Positions 10,236-58,880 of a stretch of DNA of 64,000 nucleotides are shown piece by piece (within the stretch, counting starts at the first letter, position 1; each line of letters opens with the position of its first letter). The DNA comes from Actinomycetota bacterium (lineage in GTDB: Bacteria; Actinomycetota; CADDZG01; JAHWKV01), in contig DASTUJ010000138.1 in assembly GCA_035759705.1 (NCBI GenBank), positions 87 to 64,086 of the forward strand, given 5' to 3'. The notes beneath the pieces were generated by a model. It made no database searches, was not told the origin of the DNA, and saw nothing but the letters and a program-made list of their open reading frames with translations. Made by a program: the position numbers and the translations under genes.

Positions 10236-11078
10236 TCAAGGCAGCACCTTCACCTGCAAGTCGGCCTTCATCGCCGATAGAGCGGTTCCCCGGTAGGAGC
10301 CCTCGGACGGCAGGGTGGATGCCGCGGTCGGCCCTGCCGCCACCGCCAGGTGCCGGTCCGAAACCGCCAGCCCCAGAGTCGGGTCGAATCCCCTCCAGCC
10401 GACCCGGCTGAGGTACACCTCGGCCCAGGCGTGCAGGTACTTCTCGTCGACTTCCGGGTCGCCCTCCTGGTAGCCGCTGACGAACCGGGCGGCCAGGCCC
10501 ACGGACCGGCAGGCGTCCATGAAGAGCACCGCCGCATCGCGGCACGAGCCCCGTCCCCGGCTGAGCGTCTCCGCCGGGGAGAGGGGCTGCCCCTGGAGCC
10601 GTACCTCACCTTCGATCTCGGCCGCCAGCCGGCCCGACAGCTGGGTCAGAAACAGAGGAGCTTCGCCCCCCGCGGACTGCAGCACCTCCCGGGCAAGCTC
10701 CGACACGGCAGGGTCGCCGCCGGGCTGCATATACCGAACCAGTGCTGCCGACTCCTCCGCCGGGTAGCGCATCGGGAGCTCGATCAGCGCCGGGTCCAGA
10801 ACGATGTAGTCGAACGGGTTTGCACGAAAGGTCTCGGCTCGCACGCGTGTGGAGATCTCCAGGCTGGTGGTCCCCTCGGTGAACCAGGCGAGCGCGGTGT
10901 CGTTGCCGTCCAGGTCCGAGATCTCGGTGAGCCCGGCCGGGGCCGGGTCCAGGTTCAGCTCGAAGCTCAAAACGTGCTGCGAACGGTCGGCACGGGGCCT
11001 CAGGCGCACCGCCAGCGGCTCGAGCTTGACCGGCTCGCTGTAGTCGTAGCGGGTGGTGTGCTCAACCTCGAAGATCAC
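10236..11078 (-). CDS. Transglutaminase-like family protein
   Basis: Contains the transglutaminase core (GSCRDAAVLFMDACRSVGLAARFVSGY...HAWAEVY) with the Cys/His/Asp triad context. It is the last gene of the CP-ATP-grasp quartet. Confidence 0.85.
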   Translation of the reverse strand: MIFEVEHTTRYDYSEPVKLEPLAVRLRPRADRSQHVLSFELNLDPAPAGLTEISDLDGNDTALAWFTEGTTSLEISTRVRAETFRANPFDYIVLDPALIELPMRYPAEESAALVRYMQPGGDPAVSELAREVLQSAGGEAPLFLTQLSGRLAAEIEGEVRLQGQPLSPAETLSRGRGSCRDAAVLFMDACRSVGLAARFVSGYQEGDPEVDEKYLHAWAEVYLSRVGWRGFDPTLGLAVSDRHLAVAAGPTAASTLPSEGSYRGTALSAMKADLQVKVLP

Positions 11079-11079
11079 C

Positions 11080-11838
11080 TCAGCTCTCGATCCAGGTTAT
11101 CGGCGTCACGTTGGACGCCGGCTCGTCGCCCAGGAGGGGCTCCATCCAATCGGTGGGCATCTTCTCGACCAGCCGCCTCAAGCTGTAGTTCCACCGCTCG
11201 GCCACCGCAGTCAGGTCCTCGTGGAGGAAGCGGTTCGTGACCATCGGCTCGCCTTTGCGGAAGATCACCGCGTCCATCGGGTAGCCGACTCCCGTGGTGC
11301 TGCTCTGGGTGGAGTCGAACGCCAGAAAGCCCGCCTTGAACGCATCCTCCAGGGACGACTCGTAGCGCAGGATCCGATCCAGCAGCGGCTTGCCGTAGCT
11401 CGACTCACCGAGGATGCAGTACGGCGTGCCCCGGCCTACCTCCACCCAGTTGGCCTGGGGGTACAGCATGTAGAGCTTGTGCTCCTTGTCGGCGGAGAAC
11501 TGACCACCGATCAGGCAGTTCAGGTCGAAACGGAGCCCGGCGTCGAGCAGCGCCGCCTTGTCCTCCTGCGCCACCCTCCGGACCTGGTCGGCGAGGGCGT
11601 TGGCCGCCTGGTACAGCTTGTCGAAGCCGATCTTGCGCTCCTCCAGAGCCTCCTCGAAGTAGGTCAGGACCTTGTCGCGAACGCTTCGGAGGCCGGAGGT
11701 CATGAGCAGCATGGAGTGGTCGCCGTCCTCGATCACGGTGATCTTCCGGGCCGTGAGGGTCTGCGATCCCATCGATATCCGCGTGTCGGCGATCCCGACC
11801 AGCCCGTCGTGGACCTTGATGCCGATACAAAACGTCAT
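11080..11838 (-). CDS. Proteasome-type (Ntn-hydrolase, Anbu-like) peptidase
   Basis: 252 aa, starting MTFCIGIKVHDGLVGIADTRIS with a Thr/Ser near the N-terminus as in 20S beta / Anbu subunits. It lies in the 3' end of a 906-aa run-on ORF and overlaps the upstream gene by 4 nt. Confidence 0.8.
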   Translation of the reverse strand: MTFCIGIKVHDGLVGIADTRISMGSQTLTARKITVIEDGDHSMLLMTSGLRSVRDKVLTYFEEALEERKIGFDKLYQAANALADQVRRVAQEDKAALLDAGLRFDLNCLIGGQFSADKEHKLYMLYPQANWVEVGRGTPYCILGESSYGKPLLDRILRYESSLEDAFKAGFLAFDSTQSSTTGVGYPMDAVIFRKGEPMVTNRFLHEDLTAVAERWNYSLRRLVEKMPTDWMEPLLGDEPASNVTPITWIES

Positions 11839-20272: not shown

Positions 20273-20767
20273 ATGAAGAAGCTCACGGGACTACTGCTCG
20301 TGACTGTGATAGCAGGAGCGATCTTCGCCGCTCTGGCCCTCCCGGCGTTCGCTGCTAGCAGCAACGCAGGTGGAGTTGTTGTCGAGTCCGGCGATGCACC
20401 TGACTGTGTTGGCGGAAGCTGTGGCGGCGTCATCGTCGAGGACCCGGCTGGCGTCGGCCCCGACTGCACCGGCGGCAACTGCGGCGGAAGCATCTGCCAG
20501 GGCCCCGACTGCGGCAGCTGCGCAGGCGGTAACTGCGGCGGAAGCATCAGCGGTCCGGGAACGGCCGTTGACCACGGTAAGAAGCACGACGCACCGGCCA
20601 AGGCCGCTGGCGCAAAGGCACTGCCCCGCACGGGTATCCCGACCGCAGCCACCCTGGCACTCGGCGCCGGAATGATCCTGGTTGGTCTGTTCTTCACCTT
20701 CGTCGAGCACCCCTCGACCAAGGTCGCAATGGCAGCCATGACCTACCGCCCGAAGCGTCGCCTCTAA
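20273..20767 (+). CDS. Small secreted Cys/Gly-rich protein with LPXTG-type C-terminal sorting signal
   Basis: A signal peptide (MKKLTGLLLVTVIAGAIFAALALPAFA) is followed by three DC(x)GG(S/N)CGG repeats and then LPRTG, a hydrophobic segment and a KRR tail. A strong SD (AGGAGG) is present, and an intrinsic terminator follows immediately. Confidence 0.7.
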   Translation: MKKLTGLLLVTVIAGAIFAALALPAFAASSNAGGVVVESGDAPDCVGGSCGGVIVEDPAGVGPDCTGGNCGGSICQGPDCGSCAGGNCGGSISGPGTAVDHGKKHDAPAKAAGAKALPRTGIPTAATLALGAGMILVGLFFTFVEHPSTKVAMAAMTYRPKRRL

Positions 20768-20902: not shown

Positions 20903-22471
20903 TTGGCTCAAGATCAACTGCCCGCACCAACTCCGGCAACCCGGTCGATGCGCAGCCGGGTCGTCTCGTCGTTGTTTGCTCCGCTCGACCTTGCCGCCCT
21001 TGCCTACTTCCGGATCGTGTTCGGCCTGGTGGTCTGCTGGGAGTCCTGGAGATACTTCAAGCTCGGGTGGATCGACGCCTTCTTCGTCGATCCTCCGTTC
21101 CTGTTCACCTACTGGCCGTTTCACTTCGTAGACCCGTGGCCGGGCTGGGGGATGAAGGCTCACTTCCTGGTCCTCGGCGCCGCAGGCATCCTGGTCGCCC
21201 TGGGAGCGTTCTACCGGGCGTCCGCCTCGGTGCTGTTCGTTGCGATGACGTACTTCTTCCTGCTCGACAAGGCCAACTACCTCAACCACCTCTACCTGGT
21301 CTGCCTCCTCGCTTTTCTGATGATCTTCCTGCCCGCCCACCGGACGTGGTCGGTAGACGTCCGGAGGAAGCCGTCCCTTAGGGCAGACACCGCCCCGGCC
21401 TGGACCCTGTGGCTGCTTCGCTTCCAGCTGGCGCTTCCGTACTTCTTCGGGGGCATAGCCAAGCTGAACCCCGACTGGTTAAAAGGGGAGCCGCTCAGGA
21501 TGTGGCTGGCCGAGGACGTGGACTTTCCTCTCATCGGCCGGTTCTTCACCGAGGAGCCGGTCGTCAGGCTGATGACCTACGGCGCGTTGGCGCTGGACCT
21601 GCTGGTCGTCCTCTTCCTGCTGGCGTCCCGGAAAACCCGGCCCTTCGCATACGCCGCCGCAGTCGCTTTCCACTTCATGAACTCGAGGCTGTTCAACATC
21701 GGCATCTTCCCGTGGCTGATGATCGCAGGCACGGCAATCTTCTTTCCTCCCGACACCCCCAGACGGATTCTCGAGGACCTCCGGCGCCGGCCCGGCTCGC
21801 TGCGATCGATTGCATGGTGGATTGGGATGGCCGGCGGCGCTTGGCTCGGCTGGAAGCTGCCGACGACCTTCACGCTGCCCCAGGTGGCGATAGGCGGCCT
21901 CGGAATCGCAATCCTCTGCTGGAGCCTGGCCGAGCTGTTGCGGCCCCTACCGGCCGTTCCTGTGGCCTCCGAGCCGCAGCAGGAGAACGATCGGGCGACC
22001 GGGCCGGCGCTTCGCCCGCCCCGGCCGGTGCTCGCCCTTCTGGTCCTATGGGTCGCCGTGCAGGTGTTGCTGCCTTTCAGGCACCTGGCCGTGCCCGGCA
22101 ACGTCTACTGGACCGAGGAGGGACAGCGGTTCTCATGGATGATGCTCGTTCGGTCCAAGGAGGGCCGGGTCATCTACGAGGTGACCGACGTGAGCCGGGG
22201 TCAGACGTGGGAGCTGTTCCCCGAGAACTACCTGACCCGAAGGCAATCCCTGACGCTTAGGGACAAGCCCGACATGATCGTTCAGTTCGCCCACTACATC
22301 CAGGACCGGCTCCGGGAAGACGGCTACCCGGAGGTGGAGATACGGGCAATCACCGCCATCTCGTTGAACAACAAGCCGGAGCGCCCGGTCATCGACCGGA
22401 ACGTCGACCTGACGAAGGTAAAGGTTCCCTGGTTGGGCAAAGCAGACTGGATCACGGCTGAGGAGCCCTAG
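20903..22471 (+). CDS. HTTM-domain protein (vitamin K-dependent gamma-glutamyl carboxylase-like)
   Basis: A 522-aa polytopic protein. The N-terminal HTTM signature region is LAALAYFRIVFGLVVCWESWRYF...FHFMNSRLFNIGIFPWLMIAG. The C-terminal soluble domain (YWTEEGQRFSWMMLV) is as in bacterial VKGC homologues. Confidence 0.8.
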   Translation: MAQDQLPAPTPATRSMRSRVVSSLFAPLDLAALAYFRIVFGLVVCWESWRYFKLGWIDAFFVDPPFLFTYWPFHFVDPWPGWGMKAHFLVLGAAGILVALGAFYRASASVLFVAMTYFFLLDKANYLNHLYLVCLLAFLMIFLPAHRTWSVDVRRKPSLRADTAPAWTLWLLRFQLALPYFFGGIAKLNPDWLKGEPLRMWLAEDVDFPLIGRFFTEEPVVRLMTYGALALDLLVVLFLLASRKTRPFAYAAAVAFHFMNSRLFNIGIFPWLMIAGTAIFFPPDTPRRILEDLRRRPGSLRSIAWWIGMAGGAWLGWKLPTTFTLPQVAIGGLGIAILCWSLAELLRPLPAVPVASEPQQENDRATGPALRPPRPVLALLVLWVAVQVLLPFRHLAVPGNVYWTEEGQRFSWMMLVRSKEGRVIYEVTDVSRGQTWELFPENYLTRRQSLTLRDKPDMIVQFAHYIQDRLREDGYPEVEIRAITAISLNNKPERPVIDRNVDLTKVKVPWLGKADWITAEEP

Positions 22472-22532
22472 GGCCCGGTAACTGCAGCCGGGCGTCCCCC
22501 GAGGTTATTGCTACCTGCCGGGGCCGGTCCCG

Positions 22533-23095
22533 TCAGTCGCAGCCGTCGGGGTTACGATCCTCGACGCAGACATCGCCGCTTTGTCCGCTGGAGCCGGTTG
22601 CCCCGCTTCGAGCACCGTTGCCTCCGCGGCCGCTGGTGCCGCCGTCGGCTCCGTCGGCGCCGGTGCCGCTGTCGGCATCGCCTCCGCCTCCGGCTCCGCC
22701 CTGTCCGCCGGCGCCATCGCCCCCGCTGCCTCCGCCGCCGTCCGCGCTGTCGTCCCCGGAGCTGCTGTCCGAGCTGCCGCCGGAGCCGCCTCCTCGCCCA
22801 CTGCCGCTCCGCCGGAGCCTCCGTCACCGCTGCCGCCGACCGAGGCGCCGCTGGGACCTCCCGAGCCGCCTCCACCGCCGGACCCGGAGTCGCCCCCGCT
22901 CCCGCCGCCGCCCGAGGACCCCGTGGCGCCGCTGGCGCCGGATTCGAGGATGAACTCCTGCTCGCACCCCGTGGAGTCCGGGCCCGGACCGGAGGTCTCG
23001 CAAAAGTTTTCGGCTGATGCGGTTGAGATCAACGATGCCCCGAGAAGGGCGGCCGAGATCAATGCAACGGCCAAAAGCGTTCTGCGAGTTTTCAT
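22533..23095 (-). pseudogene. Paralog A of the secreted Gly-rich Cys-loop protein family, apparently frameshifted
   Basis: The N-terminus (signal peptide plus AENFCETSGPGPDSTGCEQEFILES) is in one frame from 23095. The conserved C-terminus (GNGARSGATGSSGQSGDVCVEDRNPDGCD*) is in another frame ending at 22533. The frames switch near 22805-22825 within the GGx repeats. Confidence 0.45.
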
Positions 23096-23301
23096 CCCAT
23101 CCTCCTTGTTCCGCCGGTTCTCCGAGCGTGCCCGGTTCGGTCACGAGCCCTCGGGATCCTCTGGAGCGCCTCCTCAGGCATGGTGCTCATGGTGCGTTTG
23201 TTAAGTAGCGTTTGAACAACATACTTGAGTCGCCTATGGAGGTATAGGCAATCCGGCTAATTACATCTTGAGGATTAGAGAGACTCGCCCTACCAGGACG
23301 C

Positions 23302-23333
23302 AAAAAAGGGGCGGCCCGAAGGCCGCCCCTTTT
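23302..23333 (-). terminator. Hairpin terminator (AAAAGGGGCGGCC-CGAA-GGCCGCCCCTTTT), bidirectional-type
   Basis: A perfect 13-bp stem with A/T flanks lies 3' of paralog B. Confidence 0.7.
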
Positions 23334-23355
23334 GCCTTTTCAGGCTGAACTGCTA

Positions 23356-24021
23356 TTAGCAGTCGTTGTTGTTGTCAGCGTCTGCGCAAGCGTCGCCGGA
23401 GTCGCCGGAGTCGCCGGTGGCGCCGCTACGGGCACCGTTGCCGCCGTTACCGGAACGTCCGCCTTCGCCGCCTTCGCCGCCGTCGCCGGTGTCGGCGTCG
23501 CCGCCGTTACCTTCGCCGCCGTCGCCGCCGGTGCCGTCGCCGCCACCTGCGCCGTTGCAGCCGCCGGACTCGTCGCCGGAGCCGTCACATGCGCCGTCGC
23601 CGCCGAGGCCGCCTGCGCCGCCGCCGCCGTCGCCGCCGCCGGTGGTTGCACCGGCGTAGTCGCCGCTACCACCAGCTGCGCCGCCGCCGCCGCCTGCGCC
23701 GCCGTTGCCGCCGCCGTCGCCGCCAGCACCGCCGGCACCTGCGCCGCCGCCGCCGCCGTCGCCGCTACCGCCGGCTGCTGCGCCGGATGCTCCGCCTGCG
23801 CCGCCGTCGCCGGCTGCGCCGGACTCGCCACCGTCGCCACCAGCGCCGGACTCGCCGGTTTCGCCGGTTGCGCCGGTCTCAAGGCCGAACTCCTGGGAGC
23901 ACTCGGTTGTGTCGGGGCCCGGGCCGTTTGCGTCGCAGTTGTTCTCTGCGGCTGCGGTCGGGATGAGCAGTGCTGAAACCATGGCAAGCATCATGAGCAT
24001 GCCAAACATTTTCTTGATCAT
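23356..24021 (-). CDS. Secreted Gly/Ala/Asp-rich (PGRS-like) repeat protein with three conserved Cys pairs, paralog B
   Basis: Signal peptide MIKKMFGMLMMLAMVSALLIPTAAA, then ENNCDANGPGPDTTECSQEF, ~150 aa of GGxGGxGG repeats, a middle CDGSGDESGGC pair and a C-terminal CADADNNNDC*. The SD is GGAGG. Confidence 0.8.
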   Translation of the reverse strand: MIKKMFGMLMMLAMVSALLIPTAAAENNCDANGPGPDTTECSQEFGLETGATGETGESGAGGDGGESGAAGDGGAGGASGAAAGGSGDGGGGGAGAGGAGGDGGGNGGAGGGGGAAGGSGDYAGATTGGGDGGGGAGGLGGDGACDGSGDESGGCNGAGGGDGTGGDGGEGNGGDADTGDGGEGGEGGRSGNGGNGARSGATGDSGDSGDACADADNNNDC

Positions 24022-24270
24022 TCCTACTACCTCCTGGCTAACTGCCGTATTCGATGTGCTTCTGAATTAGCGATGTATCGAACCTGCATGGTGTTGCGGG
24101 AAGTTCAAGCTGCTCGAAATGGAATGGGCGCTACCGGCCGCCTGATAGGCGAAACCGAGCCCCTTCCACCCGATACTCGGGGACTCTATCAGTTTGGCCG
24201 GTGGGAGTGGGCGAACCCGCGAAAAAAAGTTGGGAGCCGCTCCGACGGCGTTCGAGGTATCCCGGAATAG

Positions 24271-24300
24271 AAAGAGGGGCGGCAATTGCCGCCCCTCTTT
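24271..24300 (-). terminator. Hairpin terminator (AAAGAGGGGCGGC-AATT-GCCGCCCCTCTTT)
   Basis: A perfect 13-bp stem 3' of paralog C. Confidence 0.7.
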
Positions 24301-24316
24301 GTCGAGCTTGAAGCTG

Positions 24317-24988
24317 TTAGCAGTCGTTGTTGTTGTCGGCCTCGGCACAAACGTCGCCGGAGGTGCCGGAGTCGCCGGTGCGGCCGCTGCGAGCGCCGTT
24401 GCCGCCGTTACCGGACTGACCGCCCTCGCCGCCTTCGCCGCCGTCGCCGGTGTCGGCGTCGCCGCCGTTACCTTCGCCGCCGTCGCCGCCGGTGCCGCTT
24501 CCGCCACCTGCGCCGTTGCATCCAGCGCTGGTGTCGGTTGCGCTGCCGTCACATGCGCCGTCGCCGCCTGCGCCACCTGCGCCGCCGCCGCCGTCGCCGC
24601 CGCCGGTGGTTGCACCGGAGTAAGCGCCACTGCCGCCGGCTGCTCCGCCGCCGCCGCCTGCGCCGCCGTTGCCGCCGCCGTCGCCGCCGGCACCGCCGGC
24701 ACCTGCGCCGCCGCCGCCGCCGTCGCCGCTACCGCCTGCTGCTGCGCCGCTTGCGCCGCCGTCGCCGCCGGCACCAGCGTCGCCCGAGGCTCCGCCTTCG
24801 CCGCCGTCGCCGCTTGCGCCGGTTGCGCCGGTTTCGCCGGACTCGAGCTCAAAAGCCTGCTCGCAGCCGGTCTCGTCAGCGCCGGGACCGTTTGCGTCAC
24901 AGTTGTTCTCCGCAGATGCGGTGGGAACGAGCAGTGCGGCCGACAGGGCCAGCATCAGCATCATTCCGAAGAGGTTCTTGACCTTCAT
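24317..24988 (-). CDS. Secreted PGRS-like Gly-rich Cys-pair protein, paralog C
   Basis: About 90% identical to paralog B, with the same three Cys pairs and signal peptide MKVKNLFGMMLMLALSAALLVPTASA. Confidence 0.8.
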   Translation of the reverse strand: MKVKNLFGMMLMLALSAALLVPTASAENNCDANGPGADETGCEQAFELESGETGATGASGDGGEGGASGDAGAGGDGGASGAAAGGSGDGGGGGAGAGGAGGDGGGNGGAGGGGGAAGGSGAYSGATTGGGDGGGGAGGAGGDGACDGSATDTSAGCNGAGGGSGTGGDGGEGNGGDADTGDGGEGGEGGQSGNGGNGARSGRTGDSGTSGDVCAEADNNNDC

Positions 24989-25180
24989 TTTCGGTGTCCT
25001 CCTAGAGATTCGATCGAATCAACTCCCGAAGGAGTTGGGTGGAGCGTTTGATGCGCGCTCGACGCAAGGAGAGTTAGCACCTTCCGCCGTGCATCGGGGA
25101 GTCTATCAAACCGTTCGGCCAAAAGGGCACTCGGTGAGAAAAAGTTCTTCCGAAAATTGTTGACGGCTCTTTCGAGAAAT

Positions 25181-25210
25181 AAAACGGCGGCCCCGAAGGG
25201 CCGCCGTTTG
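25181..25210 (-). terminator. Hairpin terminator (AAAACGGCGGCCC-CGAA-GGGCCGCCGTTTG)
   Basis: A 13-bp stem 3' of paralog D. Confidence 0.7.
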
Positions 25211-25227
25211 TTGCCAGGGGTTGAGCC

Positions 25228-25896
25228 TTAGCAGTTGTTGTTGTTGTCAGCGTCTGCACAAGCGTCGCCGGAGTCGCCGGAGTCGCCGCTACGGCCGCTG
25301 CGTGCGCCGTTGCCGCCGTTACCGGAACGTCCGCCTTCGCCGCCTTCGCCGCCGTCGCCGGTGTCGGCGTCGCCGCCGTTACCTTCGCCGCCGTCGCCGC
25401 CGGTGCCGTCGCCGCCTGCGCCGCCGTTGCATCCAGCGCTGGTGTCGGTTGCGCTGCCGTCACATGCGCCGTCGCCGCCTGCGCCGCCTGCGCCGCCGCC
25501 GCCGTCGCCGCCGCCGGTGGTTGCACCGGCCCAAGCGCCACTGCCGCCGGCTGCTCCGCCGCCGCCACCTGCGCCGCCGTTGCCGCCGCCGTCGCCGCCG
25601 GCACCGCCGGCACCTGCGCCGCCGCCGCCGCCGTCGCCGCTACCGCCGGCTGCTGCGCCGGATGCTCCACCTGCGCCGCCGTCGCCTGCTGCGCCGGAGT
25701 CGCCGCCTGCGCCGCCGTCACCGGTTGCGCCGGTCTCGCCGGTCTCGCCGGTGGTGAGCTCGAGCTCCTGCGAACACTCGGTGGTGTCCTCGCCCGGGCC
25801 GTTGGCGTCACAGTTGTTCTCAGCTGCTGCGGTAGGAACCAGAAGTGCGGCCGCGAGGGCCAGCATCATCAGGGTGCCCATGAGTTTCTTGATCAT
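25228..25896 (-). CDS. Secreted PGRS-like Gly-rich Cys-pair protein, paralog D
   Basis: Starts at MIKKLMGTLMMLALAAALLVPTAAA (ATG 25896). It is near-identical to B and C, and the C-terminus is CADADNNNNC*. Confidence 0.8.
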   Translation of the reverse strand: MIKKLMGTLMMLALAAALLVPTAAAENNCDANGPGEDTTECSQELELTTGETGETGATGDGGAGGDSGAAGDGGAGGASGAAAGGSGDGGGGGAGAGGAGGDGGGNGGAGGGGGAAGGSGAWAGATTGGGDGGGGAGGAGGDGACDGSATDTSAGCNGGAGGDGTGGDGGEGNGGDADTGDGGEGGEGGRSGNGGNGARSGRSGDSGDSGDACADADNNNNC

Positions 25897-26350
25897 CTGC
25901 GTGATTCCTTCCTTTGATGTTGCCTTGCTTATGCGCTGCATCCGCCTCCTGGACCTTGCCGCCAGGGGCGAAATTCTTTTGCGAGACTTCGCAACTACTG
26001 GTAAATCCCCGCCGTATCTCGATGCAAAACTTTGGTGTAGACGAAACTAGCGCCCAGTTAAATGAGCACGCCGAATGTTACCGCTCCAAACCGGCCGGTT
26101 CAAGGAATTGTTTCAGAACCCCGCTCAGCGTTCGCAGATCCTCCACCGCCGTTTCCGCGTATCGAGTTTACGGGCGTGCGGGGAGTATGTGAACGGGAGG
26201 ATCGACGGAAATCCGGCGTCTCGCAGCCGAGTTAGACTCTTAAGGCATTCGCCGAAGAGCAACAGCGGCCGGGAGACAGATTTGACGGAGAAGAATTCCA
26301 GGCGGGACGACAGGATCCTCGATCCCGAGCTCCTCAACGACGCGGCCTCG

Positions 26351-26818
26351 ATGTCCACCACCGACCTGCGCAGCCGCCGGGACGAGGTCCGTGAGCTGGA
26401 AGCGGAGTTCAGCTATGCCCGCCGCCTTCTGCAGGGCAAGATCGACATCCTGGCCGCCGAGCTGAAGCGGCGCTCGGAGGGCGGAGAGGCCGGCATGGGA
26501 GACCTGGTCAGCCGGCTGCCCTCCATCCTTGCCGACGAGCCCCGCTCCGGCGGCGCCACCCGCCTGCTGGAGTCCGATCTCCCTCGCAACGCCGGCAAGT
26601 TCCGCAGGTACACCGAGAGGCTGGCTACCGGACTGGCACACATCGAGACCTCAACCCCCGAAGAGCTCACCGCGATGGTCACCGAGCTGGGAGCCGAGGA
26701 GCGAAAGGTCTCCGAAGACCGCCGGCGGGCCCAAAAGATCATCGACGGGCTGAACGCAGAGCTGGTGAGGCGGTACCAGAAGGGTGATGAGGACCCCTCG
26801 GCTCTTTTGAGCAGCTAG
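26351..26818 (+). CDS. Hypothetical coiled-coil protein (start uncertain)
   Basis: The ORF extends from 26075, but coding-like composition and charged heptad-like repeats begin around ATG 26351 (MSTTDLRSRRDEVRELEAEF). No motif was recognised. Confidence 0.45.
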   Translation: MSTTDLRSRRDEVRELEAEFSYARRLLQGKIDILAAELKRRSEGGEAGMGDLVSRLPSILADEPRSGGATRLLESDLPRNAGKFRRYTERLATGLAHIETSTPEELTAMVTELGAEERKVSEDRRRAQKIIDGLNAELVRRYQKGDEDPSALLSS

Positions 26819-26825
26819 CGGGCCG

Positions 26826-27605
26826 GTGGAACCCAGCGCTTTTGAGGTGAACGAACCCCCCTCCCAGTCCGGCCCCCCGGCCGAGTTCGAGACGGAGACC
26901 GACTACCGGGCCGAGCTTGAACGAACCCGCTCGCAGCTCCTGGTGTTCGCCCGGGACATGAGTGCGGTTTACCAGAGGAAGCGGGAGCACGAACAAAAGC
27001 TCGGCGCCCTGCTCGAGGAGCTCCGAACCGACTACCTCTCGATTGTGGAGACCCTCGCCCTGGTGGTGGAGGCCAAGGACCAGTACACCGCCAACCACCT
27101 CGAACGGTGCAAGCGTTACGGCATCGCGCTGACCAGCCGTATCGATGCGGCGATGATCACCCCGCAGCTCCAGTACGGATTCCTCCTGCACGACGTCGGC
27201 AAGATCGGCATCCCGGAGGCGATCCTCATGAAGCCCGGACCGCTGACCTCCGAGGAGATGACCGTCATGAGAACCCACCCCTTGATCGGGGTACAGATCG
27301 TCGCCCCGATGCGCCGGGTGCTGGACGAGGTGACGGTGGAGGTCATCCGCCACCACCACGAGCGGTTCGACGGCAACGGGTACCCGGACGGCCTCAAAGG
27401 GGAGGACATCCCGCTGTCGGCCAGGATCTTCAGCGTCGTGGACAGCTTCGACGCCATGACCACGAACCGGCCCTACCGCAAGGCCCTTCCCCTGGATGAG
27501 GCTCTCACCCGCCTCAGGGCCGAAGCGGGCAAGCAGTTCGATCCCGATGTCGTGGCCGAGTTCGAGCTGCTGATGCAGAGCATCCAGTCTCCCGAGGACT
27601 GGTAA
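26826..27605 (+). CDS. HD-GYP domain c-di-GMP phosphodiesterase
   Basis: The HD motif (LLHDVGKIGIP) and GYP motif (HHERFDGNGYPDGL) are both present. The start is GTG. Confidence 0.9.
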   Translation: MEPSAFEVNEPPSQSGPPAEFETETDYRAELERTRSQLLVFARDMSAVYQRKREHEQKLGALLEELRTDYLSIVETLALVVEAKDQYTANHLERCKRYGIALTSRIDAAMITPQLQYGFLLHDVGKIGIPEAILMKPGPLTSEEMTVMRTHPLIGVQIVAPMRRVLDEVTVEVIRHHHERFDGNGYPDGLKGEDIPLSARIFSVVDSFDAMTTNRPYRKALPLDEALTRLRAEAGKQFDPDVVAEFELLMQSIQSPEDW

Positions 27606-51534: not shown

Positions 51535-51763
51535 CCGCCGCTCTTTCGGAGGGCCGGGATCCCGCGGTCAAAGGTCTCCGGAAGCGCCCGCATCGCCGCC
51601 GCCCCGGCCCGTAGCCGCCCTTCTAATGAAGGAGCGGCCTTTTCGACGTTTGCGCAGGCGGCGCTTCGGTAAGGGTTTGGGCTGACGAGCCTCGGGCTGC
51701 GGGGCAAGCTTGTGATAGCTTTCAGTGGTCTTGTCGGCTATCCACGAAGGGAATTGACGCTCA

Positions 51764-52132
51764 GTGCCGGACGGCTATTTCGGTTCATATCTAACCCTGG
51801 CGATCTACTCCCTGGCCATGATCGGCCTGGTGGGTGGCACCCTTGGGCTCAACCGCCTGGTTTCCCCCAAGGTGCCCGGCAAAGAGAAGATGACGACCTA
51901 CGAGAGCGGCGTCGACCCCATCGGCAGCGGCCAGAGCCAGACGACCATCCGCTACTACATGTTCGCCCTGCTCTTCGTCATCTTCGACGTCGAAGCGGTC
52001 TTCCTCTTCCCCTGGGCAGTGGTCTTCGAGGAGATCGGGTTGTTCGCCTTCGTCGAGATGATGATCTTCATTCTCATCCTCGCCCTGGGCCTGCTCTACG
52101 CCTGGCGCAAGAAGGTGCTGGACTGGATTTGA
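51764..52132 (+). CDS. nuoA: NADH-quinone oxidoreductase subunit A
   Basis: Three TM helices and the conserved YESGVDP plus FDVE(A/I)VFLFPW motifs. The start is GTG. Confidence 0.9.
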   Translation: MPDGYFGSYLTLAIYSLAMIGLVGGTLGLNRLVSPKVPGKEKMTTYESGVDPIGSGQSQTTIRYYMFALLFVIFDVEAVFLFPWAVVFEEIGLFAFVEMMIFILILALGLLYAWRKKVLDWI

Positions 52133-52193
52133 GAGCTTTCCCAGCACGGCAGGCCACTTCCGCTTCACCGAAAATTTCCCGTAAGGAGCGCTG

Positions 52194-52739
<546 letters not shown>

Positions 52740-53225
52740 CCGGCGGGTTTCCGACAAGATCGGGGACCTTGCCACCGGTATAGAGGTTAAATACGGGCAC
52801 ATCTGGGCGACGGTTGAACCGGCGCGCATTGTCGACGTCGTGACCACCCTCAAGACCGACCCGGACCTGCTGTGCAGCTACCTGACCTTCCTATGTGGTG
52901 TCGACTGGGAAGCCGAGGGCTTCGAGGTTGTGATCACCCTCTACTCGGTCACCAACGAGAACACCGTGATCCTGCACGTGCCGCTGGGGGCCGGCGCCAC
53001 CATGCCGACCCTGACCGGCGTATTTCGGAGCGCCAACTGGCACGAGCGTGAGGCCCACGAGATGTTCGGCATCAACTTTGAGGGCCACCCGAACCTGGTG
53101 AAGCTCTACCTGCCCGAGGACTTCGTGGGGCACCCCCTTTTGAAGAGCTTCAAGCTGGCCAGCCGCACCTACAAGCCCTGGCCCGGCGCTAAAGACCCAA
53201 GTGAAGCTGCAGGCGGAGGTCGCGG

Positions 53226-54386
53226 ATGAGCACCCTCATCCCCACCACCGACAAGTGGCTGACCGAGGCGCGCCTCTCCGGCGGCGGCACCCTGCGCACC
53301 GAGGAGATGGTGCTAAACATCGGCCCCCAGCACCCGGCGACCCACGGAGTTCTTCGGGTGGTGGTCACCCTGGACGGCGAGAAGATCGTCGACGCCGTCC
53401 CGGTCATCGGGTACATGCACCGGGGCCACGAGAAGCTTTTCGAGCAGCGGGACTTCCGCCAGATCACGAACCTGTGCTCCCGGATGGACTGGCTCTCCGG
53501 CATCAACAACGAGATCCCGGCGTCGCTGGCGGTCGAGAGGCTGATGGAGCTGGAGGTTCCCCGCCGGGCGACCTACCTCAGGGTGATCATGGCCGAGATC
53601 AACCGGATCCTGAACCACCTGATGTTCACCGGGTCGTTCGGCCTGGAGCTCGGCGCCACCACCCCGGTCATGTACGCCTTCCGCGAGCGGGAGCTGCTGC
53701 AGTCGGCCATGGAGATGGCCACCGGCGGGCGCCTGCACTTCGGTTTCATCCGCCCGGGCGGGCTGAAGGAGGACGTGCCGCGGGGGTTTGTCGACCTGGC
53801 CCTTAGAGGCATCCGCCAGCTGCAGCGGGCGATCCCGGACTACGAGGACCTGCTGATCGGCAACGAGATCTTCAAGGCACGCACGGTCGGAGTCGGCGTC
53901 CTGGATCCAGACCTGGCGATCGAGTACGGCGTGTCCGGCCCGATCCTCAGGGCCAGCGGGGTTCCCTACGACGTCCGCAAGGCCGAGCCGTACCTGAACT
54001 ACTCGGAGTTCGACTTCGACATCCCGGTGGGGGTGCAGGGCGACTCGTTCGACCGCTACTGGGTGTTGATCCAGGAGATGAAGGAGTCGGCGAAGATCGT
54101 GGAGCAGGCCCTGCAGGGGCTGCCCTCCGGCTCGCACATCGGGCAGGTCCCGAAGCGGCTGACCATCCCGAAGGGGGCCATCTGGGCCAAGGCCGAGAAC
54201 CCGCTGGGCGAGCTCGGCTACTACATAATCTCCGACGGCGAGGCCAAGCCCTACCGCATGAAGGCCCGGACGCCCTCGTTCTCCAACATATCGGTCGTCC
54301 CGCACATGCTCCGGGGCGCCTACGTGCCGGACATGGTTGCCGTGCTCGGCAGCATGTTCTTCGTGGTGGGGGACATCGACCGTTGA
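53226..54386 (+). CDS. nuoD: NADH-quinone oxidoreductase subunit D
   Basis: GPQHPATHGVLR, RMDWLSG and C-terminal PHMLRG...VLGSMFFVVGDIDR blocks. Confidence 0.95.
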   Translation: MSTLIPTTDKWLTEARLSGGGTLRTEEMVLNIGPQHPATHGVLRVVVTLDGEKIVDAVPVIGYMHRGHEKLFEQRDFRQITNLCSRMDWLSGINNEIPASLAVERLMELEVPRRATYLRVIMAEINRILNHLMFTGSFGLELGATTPVMYAFRERELLQSAMEMATGGRLHFGFIRPGGLKEDVPRGFVDLALRGIRQLQRAIPDYEDLLIGNEIFKARTVGVGVLDPDLAIEYGVSGPILRASGVPYDVRKAEPYLNYSEFDFDIPVGVQGDSFDRYWVLIQEMKESAKIVEQALQGLPSGSHIGQVPKRLTIPKGAIWAKAENPLGELGYYIISDGEAKPYRMKARTPSFSNISVVPHMLRGAYVPDMVAVLGSMFFVVGDIDR

Positions 54387-55396
54387 TCGCCGACATCCTT
54401 GCCAACGGCTACGTCCAGCTGGGACTGAAGCTCGGCGTCCTGATGATCCTGCTGCCGGCGACGCTGGCCCTGGGCTGGGTGGAGCTGAAGATCGGCGCCC
54501 ACATGCAGGCCCGGATGGGGCCGATGTACCCCGGCGGGTTCCACGGCTGGGCCCAGACGCTCGCCGACGGAATCAAGTTCGTCCTGAAGGAGAACATCAT
54601 CCCGAAGAACGCCGACAAGAGCGTCTTCTCGATGGTCCCCTACGTGACGATGCTCGGCGCCGCCCTCATCTACGTGGTGATCCCGGCCGGCGAGAACATC
54701 GTGATCGAGAACCTCGAGGTGGGGGTGTTCTACGTCCTGGCAGCGTCGTCCATCGGGGTCATCGGTGTGCTGATGGCCGGCTGGGCCTCCGCCAACAAGT
54801 ACTCGATGATGGGCGCCCTTCGCGCGGCGGCCCAGCTGATCGCCTACGAGCTTCCGCTGGTGCTGGCCGCGGCGGCAGTGGCGATGATGGCCGGTTCGCT
54901 TTCGCTGGTCGACATCGTGGAGGGCCAGAAGGAGCTGCAGCTGTTCGGCTTCTACATCCCCTACCTGCCGTTCCAGATCATCGGCTTCTTCATCTTCCTG
55001 ACCGCGGCCACCGCCGAGATGACCCGGCCCCCGTTCGACATGCCGGTGGCGGAGGCCGAGCTGATCACCGGCGCCTTCACCGAGTACACCGGCATCCGGT
55101 TCGCTTTCAGCCTGTTCGCCGCCGAGTACATCACGATGATCGGGCTGTCGGCGTTCGGCGCCACGATGTTCCTGGGGGGCTACGCTCCGCTGCACCGGGG
55201 GCTGGACTTTGTCCCCGGCATCGTGTGGCTGCTGGGCAAGACCGCTACGATCCTGTTCCTGCTGATCTGGATCCGGTGGACGTTCCCCCGCTTGAGGGAG
55301 GACCAGCTCCAGAAGTTTGCATGGAAGGTACTGATCCCGCTGTCGCTGGTGAACATCTTCGTCACCGGCGCCCTGAAGCTGACCCCGTGGATCTAG
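54383..55396 (+). CDS. nuoH: NADH-quinone oxidoreductase subunit H
   Basis: An 8-TM protein with the GW(A/S)SANKYS(M/L)MGALRAAAQ(L/M)I(A/S)YE signature. It starts immediately after nuoD with a TTGA overlap, leaving no room for nuoEFG. Confidence 0.95.
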   Translation: MIADILANGYVQLGLKLGVLMILLPATLALGWVELKIGAHMQARMGPMYPGGFHGWAQTLADGIKFVLKENIIPKNADKSVFSMVPYVTMLGAALIYVVIPAGENIVIENLEVGVFYVLAASSIGVIGVLMAGWASANKYSMMGALRAAAQLIAYELPLVLAAAAVAMMAGSLSLVDIVEGQKELQLFGFYIPYLPFQIIGFFIFLTAATAEMTRPPFDMPVAEAELITGAFTEYTGIRFAFSLFAAEYITMIGLSAFGATMFLGGYAPLHRGLDFVPGIVWLLGKTATILFLLIWIRWTFPRLREDQLQKFAWKVLIPLSLVNIFVTGALKLTPWI

Positions 55397-55405
55397 GAGA
55401 CCGTT

Positions 55406-56023
55406 ATGGCGACAACTGAAGACCGCATCGACGAGCTGGTGCCGCGCGACGCTCTAAAGACCCTCTCGCCGGGCCGGGACAAGCGGACCACGTTCGGCAT
55501 CGGCCTGATCAAGGGCCTCGCCGTCACCCTCCGGCACATGCTGAAGCCTGCGATCACCATCCAGTACCCGGATGAGATCGACGAGCTTCCCGCACGCTCC
55601 CGCGGCGTCATCGCCCTGAAGGAGGAGAACTGCACCGTCTGCATGCTGTGCGCCCGCGAGTGCCCGGACTGGTGCATCTATATAGAAGGACACAAGGAGG
55701 CCCGGGAGAGCGTGGCCGGCAAGAGGGCGAAGAAGTTCAATGTCCTGGACCGGTTCGCCATCGACTACGCCCTCTGTATGTACTGCGGCATCTGCGTCGA
55801 GGTCTGCCCGTACGACGCCCTGTTCTGGGGGCAGGAGGACAACTACTCCGAGCACGACGTCCTCCAGCTGACCCACGAGAAGGAAACCCTGAACCAGTGG
55901 ATGTACAACGTGCCGCCCCCGGTGGAGCTGGAGCTGGGCGCCATGGGGCCCGAGGTCAAGCCGCTTCCCGCCGCGGCGCCCGCCGCCGAGGCTGCCCCGG
56001 CTCCCGCCAAGGAAGGGGCGTAG
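55406..56023 (+). CDS. nuoI: NADH-quinone oxidoreductase subunit I
   Basis: Two 4Fe-4S motifs ([24 protein letters not shown]) and an Ala/Pro-rich C-terminal tail. Confidence 0.9.
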
Positions 56024-56024
56024 C

Positions 56025-56510
56025 TTGCAGGGACTGATTTTCCTGGTCGTCGCCGCCACGTCGGGCTTCGCCGCGATCCGGCTGGTGACCAACAAGAACC
56101 TGGTCCACGCCGCCCTGTACCTGGTGGTGACCCTGATGGGCATGGCGATCATCTTCCTGCTGCTCACGGCCGAGTTCGTCGCCTGGGTGCAGGTCCTGAT
56201 CTACGTCGGCGCGGTGATTGTGCTGCTGCTGTTCGGTTTGATGTTGACCCGGGCTCAAATCGGCAAGACCGCCCTCGACCGCCAGCAGCGCTGGGTGGCC
56301 GGGCCGGTTGCGCTGGTCCTGTTTGCCGTCACGACCCCGGTGCTGTGGAGGTTCTTCGACGGAGAGACCATCCGCCTCGACCAAACGTCCGGAAACACCG
56401 AGGCCCTGGGGATGGAGATCTTTACGAAGTTCGTCCTGCCGTTCGAGATCGTTTCGGTGCTGCTGCTCGCCGCGCTCGTGGGCGCCGTGTTCCTGGCGAA
56501 GAAGGATTAG
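56025..56510 (+). CDS. nuoJ: NADH-quinone oxidoreductase subunit J
   Basis: A 5-TM, 161-aa protein. The TTG start is 2 nt after the nuoI stop. Confidence 0.85.
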   Translation: MQGLIFLVVAATSGFAAIRLVTNKNLVHAALYLVVTLMGMAIIFLLLTAEFVAWVQVLIYVGAVIVLLLFGLMLTRAQIGKTALDRQQRWVAGPVALVLFAVTTPVLWRFFDGETIRLDQTSGNTEALGMEIFTKFVLPFEIVSVLLLAALVGAVFLAKKD

Positions 56511-56513
56511 CGC

Positions 56514-56819
56514 ATGCCTTTGAACTGGGTCCTGGTCCTCACCACCTTCCTTTTCTGCGTGGGTGTCTACGGCGTGCTCGCCCGGCGGAACGCCGTGATC
56601 GTGCTGATGTCGATTGAGATCATGCTGAACGCGGTCAACCTGAACTTCATCGCCTTCAACGGCGCGCTCGAGGGTGAGCGGCTGATCGGGCAGGTATTCG
56701 CCCTGTTCGTGATCGCCATCGCCGCCGCCGAGCTGGGCGTCGGCCTGGCCATCGTCCTTTTGATCTACCGCAACAGCTTCACGGTTTCGCTGGATGAGGT
56801 GAACCTGCTCAAATGGTGA
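56514..56819 (+). CDS. nuoK: NADH-quinone oxidoreductase subunit K
   Basis: 101 aa with three TM helices and the conserved ...[11 protein letters not shown]...[11 protein letters not shown] block. Confidence 0.9.
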
Positions 56820-58858
56820 CTATCCTTGCAACCGCGGCGGAGCACGGCACCGAGGCCGCAGCTTCCACCGGCGCTCCCCTGGAGATGGCCTGGCTGATCC
56901 CGATCATCCCGATGATCTCGGCGGGCGTCATCTGGGCGATCGGAAAGCGCTTCCCCCGGCGTGGCGCGGAGATAGGAATCCTGGCGATGCTGGCCGTCCT
57001 GGTGGGGGCGCTGGTCGTTTTCTTCGACACCATCGGCCACATTGCGGCCGACGAGGCCTGGCACGGCTTCGAGAAGTCGGTCACCTGGATGGACTTCGGG
57101 CCGAGCTCCACGCTCGAGCTCGGATTCAAGGTCGACGGCCTGTCGGCGGTTCTGCTGGTTGTGGTGGGCATCGTCGCGACGATGGTCCACGTCTACGCCC
57201 TCTCCTATATGAAGGGCGAGGTCCGGGTCACCCACTTCTTCGCCGCCCTCTCGCTGTTCACCGCTTCGATGCTGAACCTGGTCCTTGCGAACAACCTGCT
57301 GCAGATGCTGGTCGGATGGGAGGGTATGGGCGTCTGTTCGTACCTGCTGATCGGCCACTGGTGGGAGAAGCACGAGAACTCCTCGGCTGCCATCAAGGCG
57401 TTCCTCACCACCCGCGTCGGCGACGTCGGCTTCATGATCGGCATCTTCGTGCTGTTCTGGGGCGCCCAGAGCTTCAACGTCGGGGTCATCTCCGAGATGG
57501 CCACCGCCGGCGACATCGCCCGCGGCACGCTGACCGTGGGGGCGATCCTGCTGTTCTGCGGCGCCGTCGGCAAGTCGGCCCAGTTCCCGCTCCACACCTG
57601 GCTGCCCGACGCCATGGCCGGGCCGACGCCGGTCTCCGCCCTGATCCACGCGGCCACTATGGTCGTCGCCGGCGTCTACCTGGTGGCCCGGATGTTCCCC
57701 GTATTTGCCGCGGCGGCCCCGGCTGCTCTCGGCGTGGTCGCGGTCATCGGCTCGATCACCATGCTGATCGCCGCCCTGCTGGCCCTGGTGCAGAACGACC
57801 TCAAGAAGATTCTGGCGTACTCGACCGTCTCCCAGCTGGGCTACATGATCGCCGGCCTGGGCGTCTCCGCCTACACCGCCAGCGTGTTCCACATCTGGAC
57901 CCACGCCTGGTTCAAGGCGCTTTTGTTCCTGGCGGCCGGATCGGTGATCCACGGGGTGCACTCCAACTACATGAGCGACATGGGTGGCCTGCTCAAGAAG
58001 ATGCCCGTCACCGCCATGACCTTCATCATCGGAGGCCTGGCGCTGGCCGGATTCCCGCCCTTCGCCGGGTTCTGGTCGAAGGACGAGCTGGTTCTCGGCG
58101 CCTACACCGAGGCCATGCACGGCAGCGGGATCGCGATGTTCACCTTCATCGCCATGCTGGTGACCGCCTTTTTGACCGCGCTGTACGTCGCCCGGATGCT
58201 GGCTCTGACGTTCTTCGGAAAACCGAAGTACGACACCGCCCACGTCCACCCGCACGAGAGCCCCCGGCTGATGACCGTCCCACTGATGATCCTGGCCGCG
58301 CTCGCAGTCGCCGGCGGATGGGTCGGCCTGCCCGGCGAGGCGAACCAGTTCGCCAAATGGGTCCACCTGGCCGGAACCGAGCACCACCCGTTCAACATCA
58401 TGATCGCTGTGGTCTCCACCGGAGCGGCGCTGGCCGGCTTCGCTATCGGCTGGGCGATCTTTCGGATGGGCAGGGTCAAGGTCGACGTCCAGAAGACGGC
58501 GGCGGCCCCGCTCTACAAGCTGCTGGTCAACAAGTACTACCTGGACGACATCTACTGGAAGTTCATCGTGGCCCCGGTGCGGGACCGCCTGTCCGCGGCG
58601 GCCTACTGGACCAACATGAAAATTCTGGACGCCACGGTCGACGCGGCGGGCACGGTGGCGGTCAAGACCGGGGCCTTCGCCTACCGGGACGTCGACCAGG
58701 GCCTGATCGACGGTTTCATCCACAACCTGGCGGGGCTGGCCGGACTGGCCGGCTCGAAGATGAAGTTCTGGCAGACCGGAAACATGCAGCGGTACGCCGC
58801 TGCGATGTTCCTCGGAGTCGCCACGCTTGTCGGCGCATTCGTATTTTTCCGAATCTAG
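56813..58858 (+). CDS. nuoL: NADH-quinone oxidoreductase subunit L
   Basis: A 681-aa antiporter-like subunit with a long C-terminal extension helix. Confidence 0.95.
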
Positions 58859-58880
58859 ATCCAAAACAGACGGAGGGGCT

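Follow-up and report, generated by a model that had tools for sequence, protein, structure and literature searches.

A tandem array of four genes for putatively exported, acidic, glycine-rich proteins beside a vitamin-K-dependent carboxylase homologue in an Actinomycetota bacterium

The minus strand of a 64,000-nt stretch of DNA from a soil Actinomycetota bacterium (contig DASTUJ010000138.1 of assembly GCA_035759705.1, positions 87 to 64,086; hereafter the window, in whose numbering all positions without a contig name are given) holds four paralogous genes in tandem, A, B, C and D, for glycine-rich proteins with signal peptides. On balance, we favour the view that these are four separately transcribed genes for Sec-exported, acidic, Gly-rich proteins, of which B, C and D are old paralogues with cores that have undergone gene conversion, and of which A is broken only here. 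An earlier note on this DNA had described a four-gene tandem array with stop-to-stop distances of 961 and 911 nt between B, C and D; both descriptions hold, and coordinates on the minus strand have been established for each gene. The genes and the elements that flank them are the following (aa, amino acids):

22533-23095, minus strand: copy A, 187 aa when intact, frames read by three-frame translation
23356-24021, minus strand: copy B, 221 aa, signal peptide and Gly-rich acidic protein with three Cys pairs
24317-24988, minus strand: copy C, 223 aa
25228-25896, minus strand: copy D, 222 aa, start at MIKK
23303-23332, minus strand: intrinsic terminator of B, 13-bp stem, UUCG loop and U6 tail, -40.3 kcal/mol, z = -4.09
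24271-24300, minus strand: intrinsic terminator of C, 13-bp stem, -30.2 kcal/mol, z = -5.52
25182-25209, minus strand: intrinsic terminator of D, 12-bp stem, -31.5 kcal/mol, same hairpin in the related contigs L008 and L010
24022-24200, minus strand: putative promoter and 5' leader of B, from an alignment of upstream regions, with extended -10 TGATAGAGT (hexamer 24183-24188) and ribosome-binding site AGGAGG
24989-25115, minus strand: putative promoter and 5' leader of C, with extended -10 TGATAGACT (hexamer 25101-25106) and a CAACUCC-UUCG-GGAGUUG hairpin

Transcription units and age of the copies

Directly 3' of the stop codons of B, C and D lie perfect GC-rich stems with four-base loops and U-rich tails, the stem-loop and U-tract of a Rho-independent terminator. 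The z-scores of the three hairpins range from -4.1 to -5.5, and none of 200 shuffled sequences folded equally well. The earlier note had placed a perfect 13-bp hairpin after each copy, which is true of B and C, but the stem of D has 12 pairs and folding revealed no terminator hairpin 3' of copy A (z = 0.5). A strong ribosome-binding site is present at all four genes. In addition, the upstream spacers of B and C have an extended -10-like element in common, for which the single-copy orthologue L005 has TTTAGAGT, and we infer that these elements are the promoters of B and C. Because of the individual ribosome-binding sites, the terminators of B, C and D and the promoter-like elements of B and C, each gene is probably transcribed as a separate unit. 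The 5' leader of C is approximately 95% identical to that of its L008 orthologue, which is above the identity of the coding regions (88-90%). It matched no Rfam family, and a scan of the whole window with Rfam gave nothing at the gathering threshold; at E <= 1, the terminators and a few other places in the region gave matches, all of them below threshold.

The codon use of B-D is set apart from that of 15 background genes of the window, with GGG at 0% (versus 27%), GCG at 2% (versus 32%) and CGG at 0% (versus 42%), and with GCA at 56% (versus 7%) and ACC at 97% (versus 70%). Copy A resembles the background. Taken with the copy number, the individual terminators and the ribosome-binding sites, this codon bias makes it plausible that B-D are highly expressed, as the earlier note had proposed.

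The coding sequences of B and C are 83% identical in DNA, and D is 87% identical to either, somewhat less than the previously suggested value of about 90%. Copy A shares only approximately 60% DNA identity with B, C or D, is shorter, and lacks two features of B-D, the Cys pair ACDGS...GC at the centre and the aromatic core with its one aromatic residue. We therefore consider it a distinct older paralogue and not, as had been assumed, the fourth copy of a recent array. The intergenic spacers between the copies show no overall alignment to one another and each of them is unique. For copy D, a longer open reading frame (ORF) reaches 25941, but its start is unlikely to be used, because the ribosome-binding site AAGGAAGGA precedes 25896 and the orthologues in L008 and L010 (L8D and L10D) begin with MIKKLMG.

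The age of the copies can be judged from related lineages. The JGI contig L008 is collinear with window positions 27679-24693 at 86% identity and carries in this order the HD-GYP and RsiG genes, D with its terminator, the leader of C and the start of C. The same block is found on L010, a 65-kb contig of a metagenome-assembled genome (MAG) with a carboxylase 70% identical to that of the window, where it carries A', B' and D'. B shares its signal peptide residue for residue with L10B and D with L10D, and a single residue separates the D signal peptide from that of L8D. As the flanking genes of these orthologue-bearing lineages are only approximately 86% (nucleotide) or 70% (amino acid) identical to those of the window, and B and D each have their own orthologues with matching signal peptides, the paralogues predate the lineage splits and the duplication is old. 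A recent duplication, one of the two processes that the earlier note had offered, was rejected on the basis of these orthologue comparisons and of the non-aligning intergenic regions.

The other process, gene conversion, is supported. When B, C and D are compared with one another, synonymous divergence (dS, calculated by NG86) amounts to 0.11-0.23 over the Gly-rich core and the C-terminal half but to 0.5-1.3 over the signal peptide and the N-terminal part, and dS in the paralogue core is no higher than that in orthologue comparisons of the same core (0.24-0.28). This mosaic of low and high dS argues for gene conversion among B, C and D that is confined to the Gly-rich core. The locus has also expanded and contracted, as anticipated in the earlier note, with copies gained and lost. 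L010 contains at 11055-11835 (minus strand) a decayed C-type copy with a premature stop, which has lost the core and has its C-terminal motif fused to the signal peptide and N-terminus. There is an extra C-terminal remnant as well, and two terminator hairpins are kept.

The frameshift in copy A and the integrity of the assembly

Three-frame translation confirmed that the N- and C-terminal halves of copy A lie in different frames, and as assembled the gene is an ORF of 194 aa (22511-23095) with an out-of-frame tail. The lesion could be located by comparison with two other contigs, the ENA farmland-soil contig L001 (9320 nt), which matches window positions 24736-15419 at 99.83% identity, and the independent NCBI MAG contig L006 (4486 nt), which is 99.91% identical to the window. 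Both contain an intact 187-aa copy A, the coding sequence of which is otherwise identical to that of the window:

22794-22795, not assigned to a strand: 1-nt deletion private to the window, plus-strand CCTCCT-CGCCC versus CCTCCTCCGCCC in L001 and L006

A second private 1-nt deletion is found at 20765 (TAA-A versus TAA), just past the stop of the gene for a LPRTG-motif protein described below. In the region common to L001 and L006 (19113-23532), these two deletions are the only private differences of the window, which has no private substitution, and L001 has seven and L006 two private substitutions. Two indels and no substitutions are unlike natural divergence, and we therefore think that the deletion in A is probably a consensus error, the assembly error that had already been listed as an option. 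A very recent, real strain-specific mutation would be the less probable, though still serious, alternative. The Logan contig L007 has its first base at 20766, perhaps because of an assembly bubble there. A general indel problem of the assembly was rejected as an explanation, since about 20 other ORFs in the window, same-strand overlapping pairs included, are distinct genes, none of which is split, and have full-length domain matches where a family matched.

In the earlier note, the change of frame was placed near 22805-22825 and linked to a poly-G/GGC tract near 22815. The lesion is 10-30 nt away from there and outside any poly-G tract; the missing base sits in a CC dinucleotide within CCTCCTCC, which is neither a homopolymer nor a simple-sequence tract. 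Phase variation, by which the note had also explained the frameshift, was rejected due to this lack of a repeat tract at the missing base, and the two other assemblies agree on a single in-frame length, which does not fit a contingency locus with a frameshift in a long, strain-variable tract. Programmed -1 frameshifting was rejected as well, as there is no slippery heptamer in the sequence and in-frame alleles exist.

One might also regard the array as a recently duplicated structural gene with a fourth copy that is a true pseudogene or is switched by slippage in the GC-rich repeat. The differing frames of copy A and the decay of a copy in L010 are in line with this, and so is a JGI contig (3300041965) with an identical copy B, in which B and the carboxylase gene are 78 nt closer together and the position of A is taken by a called gene of 80 aa; this contig hints at length variation in A and may stem from another population in which A has a different length or is disrupted. 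However, we consider this explanation very unlikely, because the paralogues are older than the lineage splits, the missing base does not lie in a homopolymer or simple-sequence tract, there is no slippery heptamer for ribosomal frameshifting, and A is intact not only in L001 and L006 (99.8-99.9% identity) but also in more distant relatives. A-type genes of 184-190 aa are called in relatives with a carboxylase 83%, 70% and 64% identical to that of the window, and the A-type orthologues of the latter two are intact with dN/dS values of 0.16-0.32 at dS of at least 1. The A lineage is therefore functional and under purifying selection, which speaks against a long-standing pseudogene. The signal peptides of A-type proteins keep a twin-arginine (MKTRRTLL, MKVRRTLL and MRMRRAVI; window 22996-23095, minus strand, L010:9560-10117 and L014:5783-6355), whereas B-D have MIKK, which hints at a different export route of the A-type paralogues, perhaps Tat, or at a different regulation.

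We also considered that the array is mis-assembled, with collapsed or chimeric copies, as such repeats are hard to assemble. Short-read contigs of relatives and of near-identical strains repeatedly end within the array (L001 in C, L006 in B, and L002 and L003 in a Gly-rich gene), and the middle of C (approximately 24736-24870) is outside every independent contig, as L001 spans the 3' 420 nt of C and L008 the orthologous 5' 289 nt. On the other hand, the order carboxylase-A-B-C(3') is borne out by L001 at 99.8% identity and RsiG-D-C(5') by L008 at 86%, L010 has the same order over its 65-kb contig, and the intergenic spacers are unique, all of which makes a mis-assembly highly improbable. A protein identical to copy B is present on two other metagenome contigs. 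Tandem paralogues with terminators and one frameshift are nothing unusual in a genome, and the frameshift is most probably trivial. There is a practical warning in these results, namely that the array genes break short-read assemblies and that an exact look-up does not find the array proteins in a clustered protein database.

The protein family and its predicted structure

All of the proteins start with an N-terminal Sec-type signal peptide with an AxA cleavage site. The mature proteins of approximately 197 aa consist of 44% Gly, 15% Ala and about 16% Asp and Glu, and possess six Cys residues in three conserved pairs and one aromatic residue. The signal peptide is followed by a small Cys loop and the conserved motif ENNCDANGPG.D...C.QEF.LE.GETG, and the next ~150 residues are Gly-rich with a triplet periodicity, as the autocorrelation of Gly peaks at lags 3 and 6. 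In the middle of this region lies the near-invariant core NGGAGGGGGAAGGSGA(Y/W)AGATTGGGDGGGGAGGAGGDGACDGS....GC, and the core NGGAGGGGGAAGGSGAY/WAGATTGGGDGGGGAGG.GGDGACDGS is almost invariant in L005, L008, L009, L010 and P0001. A second Cys loop, D.CA.ADNNNDC, forms the C-terminus. The single-copy orthologue in the GTDB MAG L005 has 223 aa, is 73% identical with a dN/dS of approximately 0.35-0.4, lies in an unrelated neighbourhood and is followed by a perfect hairpin, a strong terminator. Since the length is conserved, the core is invariant, the Cys pairs are kept and dN is well below dS in the core, we infer that these proteins have a defined structure and are more than a compositional polymer.

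Scans of B, C and D with Pfam (E <= 0.01) and NCBIfam matched no family, a PDB sequence search gave artificial GGGGS linkers only and no relative, and no description of the family was found in a literature search. A scan of 1.84 billion representative proteins detected 18 relatives, mostly fragments from soil metagenomes and Actinomycetota MAGs, a count that may be too low, as an exact look-up indicated that the array proteins themselves are absent from the clustered collection. A word-indexed protein search, which was dominated by low-complexity words, gave one match and an N-terminal profile eight, and scans of genomes and metagenomes yielded one and two loci, respectively. The relatives include a mini protein of 80 aa (P0005), in which hardly anything separates the N-terminal Cys loop from a C-terminal ACADADDDNNC loop, and a 643-aa protein (P0018) with Ig-like repeats that are followed by the Gly-rich module.

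How might these proteins act? The array products are probably abundant extracytoplasmic proteins of the envelope or a matrix, in which three disulfides would staple the triplet-periodic Gly-rich region. The defined structure that results might resemble polyglycine II or collagen. Folded in this way, the Gly-rich region would present a dense acidic surface that binds cations or water, and the multiple copies would serve both dosage and the diversification of the N-terminus. A reading of the array proteins as bacteriocins was dropped, given the size of the mature protein, the Sec-type signal and the lack of immunity or export genes nearby.

Several points weigh against the account favoured at the outset. 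AlphaFold2 did not arrive at a confident fold in two runs, one on the full-length and one on the mature protein, with predicted local distance difference test (pLDDT) scores of 40.8 and 41.1, although low scores are weak evidence here, as the alignments were shallow (four and six rows, respectively). With such scores and no relative in Pfam, NCBIfam or the PDB, the proteins may be disordered. The high expression of B-D is read from the sequence only. Lastly, the ~20 unsplit ORFs indicate that the assembly is not indel-prone overall, which weakens the case for a consensus error in A.

If disorder were the rule, the array would encode secreted, intrinsically disordered acidic polymers of which only the composition matters and which might form a hydrogel, act as a spacer or, like hydrophilins, protect against desiccation. 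Besides the low scores of both predictions, the extreme composition with its single aromatic residue, the lack of structural relatives among PDB sequences and the existence of core-deleted members (P0005 and the L010 remnant) are consistent with this possibility. A disordered polymer would, however, not be expected to keep its exact length of 223 aa between orthologues that are only 73% identical, nor a near-invariant core with dN well below dS and three conserved Cys pairs, and we find it doubtful. What seems worth pursuing is a family from uncultured soil Actinomycetota that lacks annotation, is apparently highly expressed and consists of secreted, acidic, Gly-rich and Cys-stapled proteins; its near-invariant core of low complexity points to a genuine fold, perhaps an unusual one.

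The neighbouring carboxylase homologue and comparison with known systems

Two genes on the opposite strand adjoin the array on the side of copy A:

20948-22471, plus strand: homologue of the vitamin-K-dependent carboxylase (VKGC), 507 aa, or 522 aa from the alternative start 20903, with HTTM and lumenal domains
20273-20767, plus strand: secreted Gly/Cys-rich protein upstream of the carboxylase gene, 164 aa, with LPRTG sortase motif, transmembrane helix and basic tail

The carboxylase gene is convergent with A, at a distance of 62 nt. Its product is full length, matches the HTTM domain with E = 1e-84 and the lumenal domain with E = 1.6e-41 in Pfam, and aligns to human VKGC with E = 6e-40. Equivalents of the catalytic K218 and of the residues N159, H160, W223, D263, N290 and F299 are kept and Y395 is aligned to a Gln, the roles of these residues being taken from PMC12647623 and PMC13486548, so that the active centre is largely intact. 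The 164-aa LPRTG protein has repeated C.GG.CGG motifs and 12 Cys residues and had no match in Pfam. Its gene is located directly upstream of the carboxylase gene in L010, L013 and L014, and also in L002, and hence in all syntenic relatives.

We know of no substrates for most bacterial VKGC orthologues. The array proteins could be substrates of the adjacent carboxylase homologue. Once exported by Sec, they would be carboxylated at Glu and/or Asp residues by this membrane enzyme at the expense of menaquinol, O2 and CO2 and so become high-capacity binders of Ca2+ or minerals; the LPRTG-anchored Gly/Cys-rich neighbour could be a further substrate. The active site of human VKGC faces the topologically external side, which agrees with this idea, as does the full-length homologue with both domains and equivalents of seven VKGC residues. 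Moreover, a Gly-rich secreted gene adjoins the carboxylase gene in all six related lineages examined (carboxylase identity 99.6-100%, 83%, 70%, 64%, 62% and 60%), in one of which, L012, the neighbourhood is a different one and the Gly-rich gene is co-directional and not convergent with the carboxylase gene. The bacterial VKGC orthologue MloH is reported to carboxylate Asp (cited in PMC12647623).

Five of the six adjacencies belong to one synteny block (GlnA, GlnR, NifU, Mrp, LPXTG protein, carboxylase, array, RsiG, HD-GYP and GNAT) and are therefore not independent, and the L012 Gly-rich protein is only weakly homologous to the family, by its signal peptide and a single Cys loop (CET.GP.P...C). 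The family member L005 is without a carboxylase homologue within 10 kb on either side, L004 is without one in 7.7 kb, and a 50%-identical carboxylase homologue of another phylum has no Gly-rich secreted neighbour. The Y395 equivalent is a Gln, Glu positions of the array proteins are not strictly conserved but swap with Asp or Asn, and no propeptide-like motif was identified by eye. Attractive as the idea is, we regard it as unlikely that the array proteins are substrates of the carboxylase homologue. It is likewise unlikely that, more broadly, the Gly-rich acidic proteins, and perhaps the LPRTG neighbour, are the long-sought protein substrates of a bacterial VKGC orthologue, which would use menaquinol to carboxylate their Glu and/or Asp residues outside the membrane; soil Actinomycetota would in this way obtain a surface material that binds Ca2+ or minerals in the manner of Gla proteins. 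Nevertheless, the recurrent pairing with a VKGC homologue is the one lead that could matter, and the array provides concrete candidate substrates.

Directly beyond D, the window encodes an RsiG-like anti-sigma factor followed by an HD-GYP protein (26075-27605, plus strand), a pair that is syntenic in L003, L008 and L010. Further away, at 38.9-48.4 kb, one cluster for cytochrome c maturation (CcmF, CcmH) and another for cytochrome b/Rieske proteins are present, and an NADH dehydrogenase (nuo) operon extends over 51758-61897 (plus strand). In this operon, the NuoB, NuoC, NuoI and NuoJ homologues matched Pfam, and the ORFs are spaced too closely for separate genes for NuoE, F and G.

The combination of a carboxylase and its neighbours recalls VKGC with its Gla substrates and MloH in malonomycin biosynthesis, since a full-length VKGC homologue adjoins exported proteins rich in Glu and Asp. 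Unlike Gla substrates, the array proteins have neither a Gla-domain motif nor, by eye, a recognisable propeptide, and the adjacency is not universal in the family.

Among Gly-rich proteins, the PGRS domains of the PE_PGRS proteins are similar in being actinobacterial, exported, multigene and built from GGA/GGN/GGD-type triplets that are encoded by recombination-prone, GC-rich DNA, and Ca2+ binding has been proposed for them, as we propose it here. The long GGA/GGN repeat region that defines PGRS is also a property of the array proteins, with 44% Gly, GGX triplets and lag-3 periodicity. However, the array proteins are without the PE domain (PF00934, with secretion by ESX-5) or an ESX signal, as there was no Pfam match at E <= 0.01, and instead carry a Sec signal peptide with AxA site. 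They are also much more acidic, with three Cys pairs, a fixed length and a near-invariant core. RTX/beta-roll repeats (PF00353, GGXGXDXUX) are approached by GGAGGD sequences, but the hydrophobic position is absent and Pfam gave no match.

With bacterial collagen-like proteins (BclA, Scl) and plant glycine-rich proteins (PF07172), the array proteins have in common Gly-X-Y-like runs such as GETGATGASGDGGEGGASGDAG, a surface or secreted location and the GDTGDTG motifs of some family members. In contrast to these proteins, B, C and D match neither PF01391 nor PF07172 at E <= 0.01, contain almost no Pro and have Gly also at the X and Y positions. The Gly-X-Y register shifts after approximately 11 triplets, which is unlike a collagen triple helix (PF01391), and the precomputed PF07172 match that the fragment P0002 alone has reflects composition.

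Snow-flea (Collembola) antifreeze proteins are small, secreted polyglycine-II helix bundles with approximately 45% Gly, a three-residue periodicity and disulfide pairs. Sequence similarity to them is not detectable, and the array proteins are about 2.5 times longer and strongly acidic, but they may resemble the antifreeze proteins in their secretion, small size, Gly content, lag-3 periodicity, near lack of hydrophobic residues and Cys pairs that could staple helices. Taken together, the array encodes a family of a familiar kind, that of secreted, glycine-rich repetitive proteins in multigene arrays, which appears to be uncharacterised and new in sequence and has so far been found only in soil Actinomycetota.

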